A DNA stretch of 42,876 nt from Candidatus Doudnabacteria bacterium RIFCSPHIGHO2_01_FULL_46_14 (GTDB lineage: Bacteria > Patescibacteriota > Doudnabacteria > UBA920 > 2-01-FULL-46-14), in NCBI GenBank assembly GCA_001779925.1, contig MFEK01000016.1, positions 464-43,339 of the forward strand, read 5' to 3'. How positions within the stretch are numbered: position 1 is the stretch's first letter; the number at the start of each line of letters is the position of its first letter. Below the pieces are notes generated by a model. That model ran no database searches. It saw only the letters and a list, made by a program, of their open reading frames with translations, and was not told the DNA's origin. The position numbers were made by a program, and so were the translations under genes. Positions 17,700 to 40,926 of this stretch are shown here, piece after piece.

Positions 17700-19133
17700 A
17701 TGAGAAATTTCCCGATTCTAAAACGCAAAATCAATGGCCAGCGTCTGGTCTATCTTGACAATGCTTCGACAACCCAAAAACCAGAAATTGTGCTTGGAGC
17801 GATGGATAATTTTTACCGCAACCACAATGCCAACATCCACCGCGGGATTCATACCCTGTCGCAGGAAGCGACTGAGCTGTACGAAGGGACGCGGGATAAA
17901 GTTCAGAAATTTATAAACGCTAAGAATCGCGAAGAAATAATCTTTACCAGCGGAGCGACAGAGGCCATCAATCTCGTGGTCTGGACCTGGGGACATGAGA
18001 ATATCCATGCCGGCGACGAGATTCTACTTTCCGAAGCAGAACATCACAGCAACCTCGTGCCTTGGCAGATTCTCGCCAAAAAGAAACGCGCCAAGCTGAA
18101 ATTTATTCCAGTGATTTCACCCCCGCCTTTATCCTCCCCCCTCAAGCCTACCCCAAAACCGAGTACGCTTTTGGGGGACCCCGGCAAGGGGGAGGAACCC
18201 CCCTCCCTTGAGGGGAGGGGTAAGGGGAGGGTGGGGACTTTAGATTTATCAAAATTAGACAAACTCATCACTAGTCGCACAAAGATTGTCTCCACAGCTC
18301 ACGCCTCGAATGTTCTCGGCACTGTAAATCCTATCGAAGAAATCATCCGCGCCGCACACAAGGTTGGCGCCATGGTACTTATTGACGGCGCGCAAGCCGG
18401 CGGGCACATTCCCATCAATGTTCAAAAATTGAACTGTGATTTTTACGTTCTTTCGGGACATAAAATGTACGGACCAACAGGCGTGGGCGTGCTGTATGGC
18501 AAAAAAGAATTGTTAAGTTTGATGCCGCCGTATCAAGCCGGAGGACATATGATTCGCAAAGTCGAACTAGAATCCAGCACTTGGGCTGACCTGCCGCACC
18601 GCTTCGAAGCCGGTACAGCAAATATTGCGGAAGCAATCGGCCTCGGCGCAGCTATAGACTTTTTAACTCTCATTCATAACTCCCCTAACCCCTCTTATCT
18701 TAAGAGGGGGACAAATACACGGACTCTCCCCCTTAAATTAAGGGGGAGATGGAGGGGGTTATTGAAATATGAATCAGAACTTACTGCCTACGCCCTCAAA
18801 CAAATGCAAAAAATTCGCGGGATTGAGATCTACGGCCCCCAAAACAACAAAGACCGCATTGGGGTCATTAGCTTTAATTTAAAAAAAATCCCTCCCCATG
18901 ACCTTGCCTCGATTCTCGACAGCCGCGGCATTGCCATCCGCACCGGCCACCACTGCGCCATGCCTTTGCATGATAAATTGGGAATTGAATCATCTGCGCG
19001 CATCAGCCTCGGCATTTACAATACGAAAAAAAATATTGATGCATTTATTAATGGATTAAAATACGCCCAGCGTATTCTTTCTCCCCCTCGTGAGGGGGAG
19101 ATTAAGAGGGGGTCGCGGAGCAAAAATACATGA
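17700..19133 (+). CDS. sufS: SufS-type cysteine desulfurase carrying repeat-derived insertions
   Basis: YLDNASTTQKP, EHHSNLVPW, SGHKMYGPTG (PLP Lys), RTGHHCAMPL. Confidence 0.95.
   Translation: MRNFPILKRKINGQRLVYLDNASTTQKPEIVLGAMDNFYRNHNANIHRGIHTLSQEATELYEGTRDKVQKFINAKNREEIIFTSGATEAINLVVWTWGHENIHAGDEILLSEAEHHSNLVPWQILAKKKRAKLKFIPVISPPPLSSPLKPTPKPSTLLGDPGKGEEPPSLEGRGKGRVGTLDLSKLDKLITSRTKIVSTAHASNVLGTVNPIEEIIRAAHKVGAMVLIDGAQAGGHIPINVQKLNCDFYVLSGHKMYGPTGVGVLYGKKELLSLMPPYQAGGHMIRKVELESSTWADLPHRFEAGTANIAEAIGLGAAIDFLTLIHNSPNPSYLKRGTNTRTLPLKLRGRWRGLLKYESELTAYALKQMQKIRGIEIYGPQNNKDRIGVISFNLKKIPPHDLASILDSRGIAIRTGHHCAMPLHDKLGIESSARISLGIYNTKKNIDAFINGLKYAQRILSPPREGEIKRGSRSKNT
18118..18233. mobile_element. 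composite palindromic element in frame in sufS (family A pair with nested 42-nt element)
   Basis: first 80 nt match 20800-20879 at 76/80; CAAG repeated 42 nt apart. Confidence 0.9.
18676..18762. mobile_element. 87-nt family A paired-hairpin element in frame in sufS
   Basis: ATAAC..GTTAT ends; hairpins CCCCTCTTA/TAAGAGGGG and TCTCCCCCTTAA/TTAAGGGGGAGA. Confidence 0.85.
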
Positions 19134-19164
19134 CCTCCCCTAACCCCTCCTCATGAGGAGGGGA
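19080..19164. repeat. two family A units spanning the sufS stop and the sufU ribosome-binding region
   Basis: TCTCCCCCTC/GAGGGGGAGA and CCCCTCCTCA/TGAGGAGGGG hairpins. Confidence 0.85.
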
Positions 19165-19172
19165 ATAATACC

Positions 19173-19571
19173 ATGACCCAGCACTATTCTGAAACAATTA
19201 AACAACACTATCATCATCCGCTTAATAGCGGCAAATTGGACAATGCCGATTTTGTTGCCGAGCAGGTCAATCCCTTGTGCGGCGATGAAACGAAAGTTTA
19301 CATAAAATTCATAATTGTGGAAAATTCCCGCGGCCGCGGGAATTTTCCACAATCGGATTTAGTAATTCAGGACATCTCTCACGAAACCCGTGGCTGTATG
19401 ATCTGCGTGGCCAGTGCTTCCGCTGTTTCCGAATACGCCCGCGGCAAAAAACTTTCCGAAATCAAAAAGCTTGGAATAAAGCAAATCTCCAAGCTTTTAA
19501 ATGTGCAGATTAGCTCCGCCCGCGCTTCCTGCGCTAATTTGATCCATGCAGCGCTGAAAAAACTAGGTTAA
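19173..19571 (+). CDS. sufU: SufU/IscU-type Fe-S scaffold
   Basis: NPLCGDE, GCMIC.ASAS, RASCA; downstream of sufS. Confidence 0.9.
19314..19353. repeat. perfect 40-bp palindrome inside sufU
   Basis: ATTGTGGAAAATTCCCGCGG|CCGCGGGAATTTTCCACAAT. Confidence 0.95.
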
Positions 19572-20044
19572 CTGCCAATCCAATAATGATTAGGCCCGCC
19601 CTGAGAACAGTTTGGGTGATTATTCATGGGCACGGCTAGGGGATTTTCCAAATTAGCATACAAAACAAAATTTCGTCCGTTATTGTAAGTGCAATAGATA
19701 TAAATATGACAATTTGGAGTTACCTGGCAATTTAGCAAATCAATATTCTGCGGATCTACCGGCATTCTGGAAACGTATTGTGCGGGCAGCATGTTAAACC
19801 AGCCAGCCCAAGTGCTGGCGTTGCAATTCACAGCTGGATCAATCCCGTTGCAGGTTGGGTAAGTATTGTTTTCATTGAAATATAGATTCAAGGCCGTGGT
19901 TAGCTGCCGCAAATCCCCAATGCGACGCGCATCGCGCGCTTTGGATCTGGCGCTATTGAGAGCCACGAGCACTCCTGACGCCAGGAGGCCGATGATGGAA
20001 ATGACAACCAACAGCTCAATTAGCGTGAACCCGCGTTTTTTCAT
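19568..20044 (-). CDS. type IV pilin / pseudopilin
   Basis: [29 protein letters not shown]; Cys pairs. Confidence 0.9.
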
Positions 20045-20417
20045 TACTTTTTATTTCTCTGGTTTTTGCTTCTTTGCCTTCGCGGGTGTAGTAGAGTTTA
20101 GATTTGCGGGCAACCGAGTTTTTCACAACCTCAATTTTCGCGATGGTTGGAGAGTGCATTGGAAACACGCGTTCCACGCCCACGCCGGAAGCAATCTTTC
20201 TTACGGTAAAGGTCGCATTGATGCCAGAACCGTGTTTGACCGCAATGATCTGCCCATCAAACATCTGCACGCGGTCGCGATAGCCGGTGACCGTGCCTTT
20301 TTTTGGATCCACGATCGGCTCTTTGATTTTCTGGTGCACGCGAACAGACTGACCACTGCGTAGCTGCGGCAGATCGGTTTTCAAAACGTCTTTAGAAATT
20401 TCTTTAATGTAAGGCAT
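20016..20417 (-). CDS. rplS: 50S ribosomal protein L19
   Basis: [25 protein letters not shown]. Confidence 0.96.
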
Positions 20418-20458
20418 GTTGTTTGAATATTGAATTTCGAATTTTGAATCTCGATATT

Positions 20459-39515: not shown

Positions 39516-39529
39516 AAAAAAGGAATATT

Positions 39530-39970
39530 CTATTCATTATAAATCAAAATATTGGCAATGATCGTTACGATCGCGAAAGACAAAATCACCAGAACTACGC
39601 CGATGACTGCGTGCAGAATGGTTTTTTTCGCGCCCTCGGCCTGCTCTTCATTGCCGTGCGCGGTGATGTAACGGATCCCGCCGATGATTACGAACAGGAC
39701 AGCGAGCAACCCCACGATCGCAAGCAAGATATTGATAACCCCCAGAATCAATTCTGAGGCAGTGGTCGCTCCCGCGGGGCCGCAGGCACCCAAAAGATTT
39801 CTAATAATACCGCCGATGCCTGAACAGGCAAACTGGGAATTCGTTGGCACTGGTACCGGGTCGGTTTTATCAATGCAAAGAGTTCCGGTACAGCCCGGCA
39901 CAGCTCCGGCAATAGCAGGAACTGTCAACAAAACGACGGCAAAAATCAGAAAATAAAAAATCAGCTTCAT
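39530..39970 (-). CDS. VirB2/TrbC-like (T4SS-type) pilin
   Basis: signal peptide; GGIRYITAHGNEEQAEGAKKTI..AVIG between two TM helices. Confidence 0.88.
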   Translation of the reverse strand: MKLIFYFLIFAVVLLTVPAIAGAVPGCTGTLCIDKTDPVPVPTNSQFACSGIGGIIRNLLGACGPAGATTASELILGVINILLAIVGLLAVLFVIIGGIRYITAHGNEEQAEGAKKTILHAVIGVVLVILSFAIVTIIANILIYNE

Positions 39971-40365
39971 ATTCCCCTAGCCCCGCCGAGCAGAACATTA
40001 GTAATGATTGTGATAATCGCGAATGACAGCACCACCACAATCAGGCCGATTACAGCATGGGTCATGGTTTTTTTAGCTCCCTCCGCATTTTCCTCATTGC
40101 CCGCGGCCGTCACATACCGAAACCCGCCAATGATCAGAAACAGCACGGACAGGGACCCGACAACGAGCAGGAGGATTTGGATGACAGTCAGAATGAGCGC
40201 ACCAAAACTCTGCGACCCAGCCGGTCCATCATTAAAAAAACATGGAACACTAATTATACCATCAGAGCAATAATCACCAAGGTCAGCCAGCGCCGCTCCA
40301 GGGAGCAAGATCACTGCCAGCAAAAGAAATAATTTCACCAATAAAATTGTCATTGCTCTATTCAT
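39967..40365 (-). CDS. VirB2/TrbC-like pilin
   Basis: GGFRYVTAAGNEENAEGAKKTM. Confidence 0.88.
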   Translation of the reverse strand: MNRAMTILLVKLFLLLAVILLPGAALADLGDYCSDGIISVPCFFNDGPAGSQSFGALILTVIQILLLVVGSLSVLFLIIGGFRYVTAAGNEENAEGAKKTMTHAVIGLIVVVLSFAIITIITNVLLGGARGI

Positions 40366-40760
40366 TCTGTAGGCACTCCTGTTCCCGGAGCGCCACCAAT
40401 CAAAGCTTCGGAAATTATGAGAATAATCGCAAACGACATGATAATGATGACCAGCCCCCAGACCGCTGCTGTCATGGTGCTTTTGGCAGATTCAACCTTT
40501 TCTTCATTACCGCGGGACAGAATATATTTTATTCCGCCAACGACCAGGTAGACGACGGCAATGCTTCCTGCAACCAATAGCAGGACTTGAAGAACCGTGG
40601 CAATCAGCTGGCCAAAGGTTTGCGAGGTTGCCGGGGACGAACCCGCAGAACCAAAACCGAACTTGCTGCCAATCGTGTTTTTGAAAAAATCGTTCAAAAT
40701 GCCCTGCTGGGCAAGGACAAGACCAGCGGCAAAATTATTCAATTTTTGTTTCAAGTACAT
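40362..40760 (-). CDS. VirB2/TrbC-like pilin
   Basis: GGIKYILSRGNEEKVESAKSTM; start placed at the ATG at 40760 because the upstream extension is repeat-derived. Confidence 0.85.
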   Translation of the reverse strand: MYLKQKLNNFAAGLVLAQQGILNDFFKNTIGSKFGFGSAGSSPATSQTFGQLIATVLQVLLLVAGSIAVVYLVVGGIKYILSRGNEEKVESAKSTMTAAVWGLVIIIMSFAIILIISEALIGGAPGTGVPTE

Positions 40761-40776
40761 TTCGTCTTTTATACTT

Positions 40777-40926
40777 CCCTCCCCTTGCCGTGCCCGCCAT
40801 AGCTTCAAGCGAAGGCTGGGATGGGGAGGGACTGAGGAAGGGGTGGCGTATGAAAATTATTCACCCCACCTAACCTCCCGCATCCCAGCCTACACGCAAG
40901 GCTTCGGCGGGCAGGCAAAGGGGAGG
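40777..40926. repeat. two inverted family A units, each with a nested family B element (33 nt at 40788-40820, 32 nt at 40884-40915)
   Basis: same T^CAA tip insertion site as in the RluA copy. Confidence 0.85.

Follow-up and report, generated by a model that had tools for sequence, protein, structure and literature searches.

The window analyzed here is the whole stretch of 42,876 nucleotides (nt) from Candidatus Doudnabacteria bacterium RIFCSPHIGHO2_01_FULL_46_14, corresponding to contig C16:464-43339 of the source genome, which we call G000. This genome is metagenome-assembled, comprises 1,075,229 bases in 17 contigs and is rated 99% complete. Two genes of the window, named from their Pfam matches as sufS (Aminotran_5, E 4e-139) and an RluA-type gene (PseudoU_synth_2, E 3e-30), contain composites of short C-run/G-run hairpins, here termed family A, and the loops of such hairpins hold still smaller modules, here termed B (33 nt) and C (42 nt). 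The features with which the argument begins are these:

18118 to 18233, plus strand: family A head-to-head composite in sufS, in frame, amounting to about 41 extra amino acids (aa) compared with the related genomes G001, G007 and G008
18143 to 18184, plus strand: module C (42 nt) in the loop of hairpin H1 of the sufS composite, at C-run-T^CAAG; one central inner hairpin, stable (z -2.55)
18201 to 18221, plus strand: empty hairpin H2 of the sufS composite, CCCTCCCTTG^AGGGGAGGG, with loop TTGAG, showing the B site unfilled
19083 to 19163, plus strand: tail-to-tail doublet with CGTG/CATG loops at the sufS 3' end, empty in G000
20800 to 20951, minus strand: family A composite in the RluA-type gene, with both C and B
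20825 to 20866, plus strand: module C (42 nt) in the H1 loop of the composite in the RluA-type gene
20893 to 20925, minus strand: module B (33 nt) filling the loop of hairpin H2 in the composite of the RluA-type gene; junction C-run-T^CAAG, read on the minus strand
22725 to 22757, minus strand: full B copy outside family A hairpins, lying in the C-terminal tail of the S16 gene and translated there
39460 to 39520, plus strand: degenerate hairpin with B (39474-39505, 32 nt), intergenic, between convergent genes
40770 to 40935, no strand assigned: doublet of tail-to-tail units in the interval between two T4SS-pilin genes; each of its hairpins holds B
40788 to 40820 (minus strand, 33 nt) and 40884 to 40915 (plus strand, 32 nt): the two B copies of that doublet

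The sufS composite reads, in order, tail CACCCCCGCC, hairpin H1, a 4-nt spacer (AACC), hairpin H2 and a G-rich tail; for the full composite of the RluA-type gene the folding energy is -43.2 kcal/mol (z -4.2). An original prediction, made from the letters of the window, had placed the empty H2 of sufS, the 33-nt insert in the RluA-type gene, three related inserts and the 42-nt inserts, and all of these coordinates proved exact; the B copy in the S16 gene was not among them.

These hairpins are far from peculiar to the window. Compact hairpins, taken in the scan of G000 as a perfect C-rich/G-rich stem of at least 6 bp with a loop of up to 8 nt, number 244 in 1.075 Mb, and by central motif about 78 of them are TCAA/TTGA (family A), 25 are CGTG/CATG/CACG, 12 are CTCGAG and several are TTAAG-like. 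Each unit is composed of a tail, a linker and a hairpin whose loop has a fixed orientation relative to the tail; units occur singly, head-to-head as the composites of sufS and the RluA-type gene, or tail-to-tail with a short spacer as doublets, which are common in G000. The ends of a composite are inverted unit tails (CACCCC... and ...GGGGTG), that is, terminal inverted repeats, and comparison of family A composites with the empty sites of relatives gives no evident target-site duplication. G000 carries a REP-like superfamily of C-run/G-run hairpin units of which family A is the TCAA-loop type. Coding sequence is hardly avoided by these units: 117 of the 244 lie at least 150 nt deep in long open reading frames (ORFs), compared with 58% of random 22-nt segments. 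Within genes the units persist in frame, and the elements do not interrupt the reading frames of sufS, the RluA-type gene, glmS and others.

Profiles for the two modules were built from seeds and iterated with nhmmer across G000 (E<=0.01). For C they returned 23 copies, 21 of which are enclosed by a C-arm and a G-arm that pair perfectly over 6 bp or more and belong to two arm types; the right flank begins with CAAG in 19 of these 21, the 40-nt core is free of indels in 20 of them, giving a module of 42 nt, and the two outliers are diverged, one adjoining a 16S rRNA gene. For B they returned 30 B-like copies, nine between perfect arms and six in imperfect or degenerate arms or in a linker, the latter assigned by eye from the listed flanks. 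The hosts of these 15 are TCAA-type loops (nine), CACGAG (three), CGAG (two) and the linker (one, at C14:155957, where the junction is CCCT^CAG). The claim that small modules nest at a fixed and oriented loop position of another repeat is therefore borne out for 21/23 copies of C and 15/30 of B. Placement in loops is not chance, because 30 of the 53 module copies are found at the loops of compact hairpins that number only 244 in the 1.075 Mb. That the second family "always" sits in family A hairpins, as had been proposed, is wrong: the other 15 B-like copies stand alone outside any such hairpin, three starting at tRNA CCA ends and one in the S16 tail, which comes near to the majority outside that the prediction had itself named as speaking against it.

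The left junction of B is T in all 15 hairpin-borne copies (three need a 1-nt register shift), and the right junction is CAA in eight, CACGAG in three, CGAG in two, CAG in one and TAAG in one. The predicted T^CAA thus describes only 8/15 copies of B, and T^CA (12/15) is the better consensus. Orientation is also fixed, the unit tail being on the same side of the module in 13/13 B and 19/21 C copies with a recognizable tail (counted by eye from the listed flanks). The ends of B and C are alike, as had been noticed before, with AGCCTAC near the 5' end and GG at the 3' end, and two further kinds of module also begin with GCCT. At least four other GC-rich kinds nest likewise, some 1-2 nt off in the loop: for instance, a 21-nt module occurs twice, once in coding sequence, another is common to C10:60854 and C13:25504, and a single 39-nt and a single 24-nt module are both in long ORFs and both multiples of three in length. 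We also considered whether the arms might be B's own terminal repeats, so that arms and module would form one element, and rejected this, as B has several kinds of hairpin for hosts, hairpins are often empty and 15 of the B-like copies are armless.

Comparison with relatives shows that the loops do not keep their content. The panel comprised 41 related genomes, the relatives having genomes of 0.6-1.2 Mb; G001 belongs to the same genus as G000 and G007 to a sister genus. Almost all of G007 was compared, and both flanks were mapped in it for 74 of 167 run-loci of G000 and for 19 of 23 C loci. Among the 41 genomes C is present only in G000 (21) and G007 (6), and the CAGCC form of B is found in G000 (15) and G007 (2-3), with stand-alone CCGCC-type relatives in five other genomes. 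Six sites are informative between G000 and G007. In glmS a composite occupies the same codon in both, with the right unit and its flank identical over 34 nt; the right hairpin has C in its loop in G000 and no module in G007, where the left unit, which is not the same in the two genomes, carries B. The reciprocal state is seen at the same site of a glycosyltransferase gene, where it is G007 that has C in H1 and G000 that has the empty loop. At the window doublet 40770-40935 the first hairpin contains B in G000 and C in G007 at the same CTTG^ position, and the second hairpin in G007 contains a 19-nt module flanked by TCAAGG repeats; at the doublet 19083-19163 the first loop in G007 contains a GC-rich hairpin of 39 nt, and the second unit one of 26 nt. 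At C10:49456 and C16:170730 the loop is filled with C in G000 and empty in G007. At one matching site the copy of B is 30 nt in G000 and 21 nt in G007. Loop tips therefore change content between sister genomes, by gain or loss both ways and with different modules at one tip, and the loop (C-run-T^CA) is a hotspot for gain, loss and exchange of short GC-rich modules.

Whole units also come and go. Seven near-identical composites of family A with C are present in G000, and because most A::C composites of G000 have no family A element at the matching site of G007, we consider that the composite moves as a unit. The RluA-type gene has no insert in G001 and G008, carries only a 72-nt element of another type (D-type, below) in G007, and has yet another element at that spot in G006; the first SufS insert is absent from G001, G007 and G008, and G004 and G006 have other C/G-run inserts at that protein position. 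Since the orthologues of SufS and of the RluA-type protein carry differing inserts at shared positions, permissive loops are evidently hit again and again.

The original prediction had advised looking for Y1/RAYT, GIY-YIG or DUF559 genes flanked by the repeats, and it is the last of these that were found. Six genes for DUF559 proteins (Vsr-like PD-(D/E)XK nucleases; Pfam E 1e-29 to 1e-41, with a match to PDB 3hrl, an "endonuclease-like protein", at E 8e-18) are present in G000, each in the spacer of a tail-to-tail hairpin doublet. The gene at C10:45541-45858, for one, has TCAA-type hairpins on its flanks, and that at C16:67593-67895 has hairpins of the CGTG/CATG type. A compact hairpin lies within 110 nt on 12/12 of their flanks, compared with 0.036 for random positions, and in G007 the figure is again 12/12 against 0.044; three of the loci occupy the same chromosomal position in both genomes. 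In relatives the flanking pattern held by eye at nine DUF559 loci, and hairpins were found on both sides in 18/19 loci scanned. The loops upstream and downstream of a DUF559 gene are reverse-complementary (CTTGT and ACAAG, for example), and doublets with no gene, like that at 19083-19163, are laid out identically, a spacer of 14-17 nt taking the place of the gene. A tree of 19 DUF559 domains, 18 of them different, resolves three well-supported clades that match the loop types: the genes of one have only CGTG/CATG-type hairpins on their flanks, those of a second, which come from four genomes in three families, have only TCAA-type hairpins, and those of the third have other loop types. All 11 of the 41 genomes with at least three matches to the two hairpin patterns counted have DUF559, and the 16 without DUF559 have at most one match. 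Because the DUF559 genes sit in doublet spacers and their clades match loop types, the hairpins and the nucleases would seem to be cognate pairs, much as REPINs are with RAYTs, with a different enzyme.

The other enzymes named in the prediction fared differently. No Y1_Tnp match at E<=0.01 was found in G000, with a control that matched 6/14 known genomes, so that neither a Y1/RAYT gene nor the IS608-type HUH chemistry that had been offered as one possibility is in evidence in this 99%-complete genome. A search of G000 for GIY-YIG returned 11 small ORFs (84-143 aa) in addition to UvrC, and these were set aside as a repeat-linked enzyme, their flanks showing tRNA genes or halves of them and not family A, B or C.

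How the modules enter the loop we infer as follows. The loop would be broken, most likely by the cognate DUF559 nuclease; the break would be repaired from another unit, by gene conversion through the arms, or by the copying of another hairpin; and the modules would then spread mainly by riding with their host unit, with composite units being amplified. The small nuclease genes between the hairpins are the likely driver of the changes at the loop tips. We regard this whole account, in which cognate pairs of hairpin and DUF559 gene are joined to a loop hotspot whose modules are gained, lost and exchanged through break repair, as evenly balanced between right and wrong. We hold more tentatively to its most general form, which to our minds is somewhat doubtful: that DUF559 proteins, a widespread family, are the cognate nucleases of a REP-like hairpin superfamily in small-genome groundwater bacteria, in an independent partnership of the REPIN-RAYT type, and that cutting of the loop turns it into a cassette site for modules, in essential genes as elsewhere.

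Several observations weigh against this account. The link between DUF559 and the loops is drawn from gene position and the matching of clades rather than from biochemistry; the loop labels on the tree were assigned by hand and relatives share labels by descent, and the related genomes that enter the counts of DUF559 and hairpins are not independent. Nine genomes have DUF559 and neither of the counted hairpin patterns, and the loci inspected there have other loop types. The DUF559 loci are positionally stable between G000 and G007 and were not themselves seen moving. The direct repeats beside modules vary, from none for B and CAAG for C to TCAA, TTGA or TCAAGG for others, a variety of short repeats more in keeping with untidy repair than with a single fixed cut. 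Folded by itself, B is no more stable than shuffles of its sequence (z 0.56 and -0.75). The direction of change at the tips, gain as against loss, is not fixed by two genomes, and the glmS site has no element in G001 and G004 and another element in G006, so that the glmS element shared by G000 and G007 could be two insertions at one preferred site and not one inherited hairpin. The coding status used below was assigned by a rule (a spanning ORF of at least 150 aa reaching at least 100 nt to either side) and not by a gene caller.

The main rival needs no dedicated enzyme: replication would stall at the hairpin tip, the nascent strand would switch by microhomology to another hairpin, copy it and return, and modules would multiply only with their host unit. 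We judge this unlikely, though it accommodates much. Short flanking repeats of variable length and position from the loop (CAAG for C, TCAA/TTGA in genome G022, TCAAGG in G007) fit it, most nested modules examined can pair as GC-rich hairpins, stand-alone relatives are found elsewhere (B-like hairpins in the five other genomes, a C-like hairpin by the 16S gene), and no transposase match was obtained among the families searched in G000. However, B has no flanking repeat, and yet at least four hairpin types carry it at an identical T^CA, always in one orientation; B and C at one tip would require high recurrence or exchange between units; and the strict association of DUF559 with the hairpins is left unexplained. 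Alternatively, nothing might insert at all, the filled hairpins being original and the empty tips arising by precise central deletion, through slippage between short repeats or through a hairpin nuclease followed by rejoining. Deletion between the copies of the CAAG direct repeat that bounds C would yield the exact empty site, two genomes give no direction of change, and internal shortening is seen, as in the 30-nt copy of B that is 21 nt in G007. Against this, B is bounded by no repeat and lies in several unrelated hairpin types and a linker, the empty TCAA-type tips (78, from the central-motif counts) outnumber the filled ones and share one conserved loop, different modules are found at the same tip in matching sites, and between G000 and G007 filled tips face empty ones in both directions; we consider the deletion reading improbable.

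A further possibility is that B and C are tiny non-autonomous elements moved in trans by a dedicated site-specific enzyme encoded by a phage, a plasmid or a lost gene, perhaps of another rolling-circle/HUH type. IS91 inserts next to CAAG without duplication, and the fixed orientation, the lack of target duplication for B, the target beside CAAG and the end motifs common to B, C and two other modules would all suit such an enzyme. The restriction of B and C to G000 and G007 of the 41 genomes, though G001 is closer, suggests lateral spread, and seven of the 30 B-like copies of G000 form a local cluster within 22 kb (C16:21-44 kb). Nonetheless, IS110, TnpB, reverse transcriptase, rve and DDE_Tnp_1, like Y1, gave no match in G000 (these families having been searched, not the whole proteome), and Y2 gave none either, a null of little weight since its control matched in no genome. 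Pairs of end motifs 60-4000 nt apart in G000 were separate full copies only, so there is no longer element with the ends of B or C at that range, and the junctions are not uniform across modules. This reading is in our view quite improbable. Least probable of all, and in our estimation very unlikely, is the earlier suggestion of IS608-type, hairpin-guided single-strand transposition by a RAYT-like Y1 HUH enzyme. TCAA is the right-end cleavage site of IS608, and insertion 3' of a fixed short sequence, in one orientation, without duplication for B and in a hairpin context, is in keeping with it; but besides the missing Y1_Tnp match, the genes between the hairpins are DUF559 and not Y1, and B alone is not a stable hairpin.

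Coding and non-coding copies differ in length. All 25 coding copies are multiples of three (B of 33 nt six times and 30 nt twice, C of 42 nt 17 times), compared with 7/11 non-coding copies (B of 33 nt in 4/7 with 32 nt in three, C of 42 nt in 3/4 with 43 nt in one). The probability of finding the four odd lengths all in the 11 non-coding copies is 330/58905 = 0.006, though the copies are not independent. The length difference on which the original prediction had built a filter by reading frame is thus upheld, but we read it as ordinary selection against frameshifts acting on families of standard length divisible by three, and not as a filter at insertion. Removal of the elements from mRNA by splicing is unlikely, since coding copies keep lengths divisible by three and open frames. 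The open frames across the 25 coding module copies also speak against misassembly. The stretch is carried by eight public runs from groundwater and soil metagenomes; when contigs of four public runs were examined for polymorphism over 17700-37699 they stopped at repeats and none bridged a module. An Rfam scan at E<=1 returned two tRNAs and weak chance matches, with no family fitting the repeats.

Among known systems, REPIN-RAYT, known from Pseudomonas and enterobacteria, is the closest in logic. Its short palindromic units are paired in inverted orientation, with a gene between inverted units (PMC3116915). The inverted unit pairs, the single-copy nuclease-type gene between them at a conserved position and the pairing of gene lineage with repeat type are shared. 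Here, however, the flanked gene is DUF559 and not a Y1 HUH transposase, and the units are not extragenic and carry nested modules. For in-frame residence in genes the closest system is that of the Rickettsia palindromic elements, in-frame palindromic repeats in unrelated housekeeping genes that are translated as an extra peptide (PMC10969869). The palindromic repeats of G000 are likewise in frame in protein genes, but they belong to another lineage and sequence and are modular, nuclease-linked and endowed with loop inserts, whereas the passages on the Rickettsia elements link no enzyme to them. The closest precedent found for nesting is the cyanobacterial SDR5 module, inserted at one exact position in the HIP1 palindrome by a mechanism still open there (PMC4390886). 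The likeness, a very small module at an exact position in a palindromic repeat many times over, is one of analogy only, with no sequence relation; the host there is an 8-nt palindrome as compared to the 20-nt tailed hairpin unit here, and the passage reports no repeat-flanked nuclease gene. The SDR5-in-HIP1 work is reportedly that of Elhai et al. 2008.

Other comparisons are looser. IS200/IS605 elements (IS608) and their miniatures share oriented insertion by a short sequence, the lack of target duplication seen for B and the hairpin context, but their Y1 transposase is missing in G000, the modules are of 21-42 nt and B has no stable hairpins of its own. The BIMEs of E. coli are extragenic mosaics of a few kinds of module, set in constant orientation to one another, with extra motifs between REP units. 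The repeats of G000 are likewise drawn from few modules in fixed orientation, but their motifs lie inside loops and their units are also intragenic. Of the features of a classical miniature inverted-repeat transposable element the terminal inverted repeats are present, and no parent insertion sequence with a transposase was found among the families searched. What is new is the combination of REPIN-RAYT logic, in-frame residence and loop nesting with a DUF559 nuclease. Literature searches, mostly at the level of titles and abstracts, found no publication linking DUF559 to repeats and nothing on in-frame palindromic repeats in Candidate Phyla Radiation genomes.

The spread of short palindromic repeats is understood for few families, RAYTs being the main case. 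The compact system of G000 unites a candidate enzyme family of unknown function, DUF559, with one gene per hairpin type, and a defined loop site that occurs naturally filled, empty or swapped in sister genomes. It also presents, in a small-genome groundwater bacterium, hairpin repeats with changing loop modules even inside genes, and dozens of insertions tolerated in essential genes (sufS, glmS, uvrC, ribosomal protein S16), which bears on the origin of new protein surface segments. If DUF559 proved to be the nuclease, a large orphan family would gain a function and a second, independent partnership of repeat and nuclease would be recognized, in which mini-modules would be inserted, lost and swapped at hairpin cassette sites and translated inside essential genes.

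Three further features of the window complete the inventory:

18680 to 18758, plus strand: second in-frame element of sufS, of another hairpin type (TTAAG-type loops); relatives have other inserts at this protein position
20723 to 20794, minus strand: D-type element in the RluA-type gene, 72 nt, in frame, with arms ACCCCGTTAGAAAT and a GC-rich core
26240 to 26262, minus strand: B-like hairpin at the CCA 3' end of a tRNA-Val gene

The D-type element is flanked by a 9-nt direct repeat, GGGGTTGAC on the coding strand, which equals the empty target in G001; it is also in G007 and is absent from G001 and G008. Together with the family A composite it makes up 210 nt of extra sequence in the RluA-type gene compared with G001; by the protein alignments D accounts for 72 nt, and the net size of A varies. 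The 12-mer of the arm ACCCCGTTAGAAAT occurs 47 times in G000, with a GC-rich core between arms, and the D-type family has matches in G001, G007, G008, G012, G017 and G026.

B-like hairpins start exactly at tRNA CCA 3' ends at window 26240-26262, at C16:90065-90091 and C1:27329-27350 of G000 and at C30:46908-46934 of G007, and the tRNA's own CCA is built into the stem (CCAGCC...GGCTGG). These hairpins may serve in processing or as terminators, and family B possibly arose from them. A diverged C-like hairpin stands alone at C16:248-283 in the 16S leader region, just outside the window, and G007 has a different GC-rich hairpin at that site. A hairpin with C at C16:228666-228705 lies within the GIY-YIG-matching part of a UvrC-like ORF of 634 aa, with the frame open. 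The pilin genes on either side of the doublet 40770-40935 belong to a set of four tandem T4SS-pilin paralogues (Pfam T4SS_pilin) at window 39530-41299, with hairpin doublets in the spacers.

The small GIY-YIG ORFs look like homing-endonuclease-type insertions in tRNA genes. One is at window 29331-29753 (minus strand) with a tRNA-Leu at 29288-29374, and others are at C7:52169, C6:122674, C16:200304 and C1:27062; that at C7:52169 is apparently inserted in a tRNA, a short stretch of which is repeated on both sides.

With regard to glmS, its product (G000 C13:40484-43518) is 93% identical to that of G001 in the C-terminal part and 80% in the N-terminal part, and the residues around the insert are common to G000 and G007 and not to G001, which hints at an exchange of a gene segment, repeat included, between the G000 and G007 lineages. 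Finally, where G000 has family A composites G007 often has in-frame tandem repeats of 6-7 nt (ACTTAC-type and CTACAAG-type), at the sites orthologous to window 18118-18233 and to C14:220714, C16:193015 and C3:39265 of G000; these tandem repeats make up a second class of insert found at such permissive sites.

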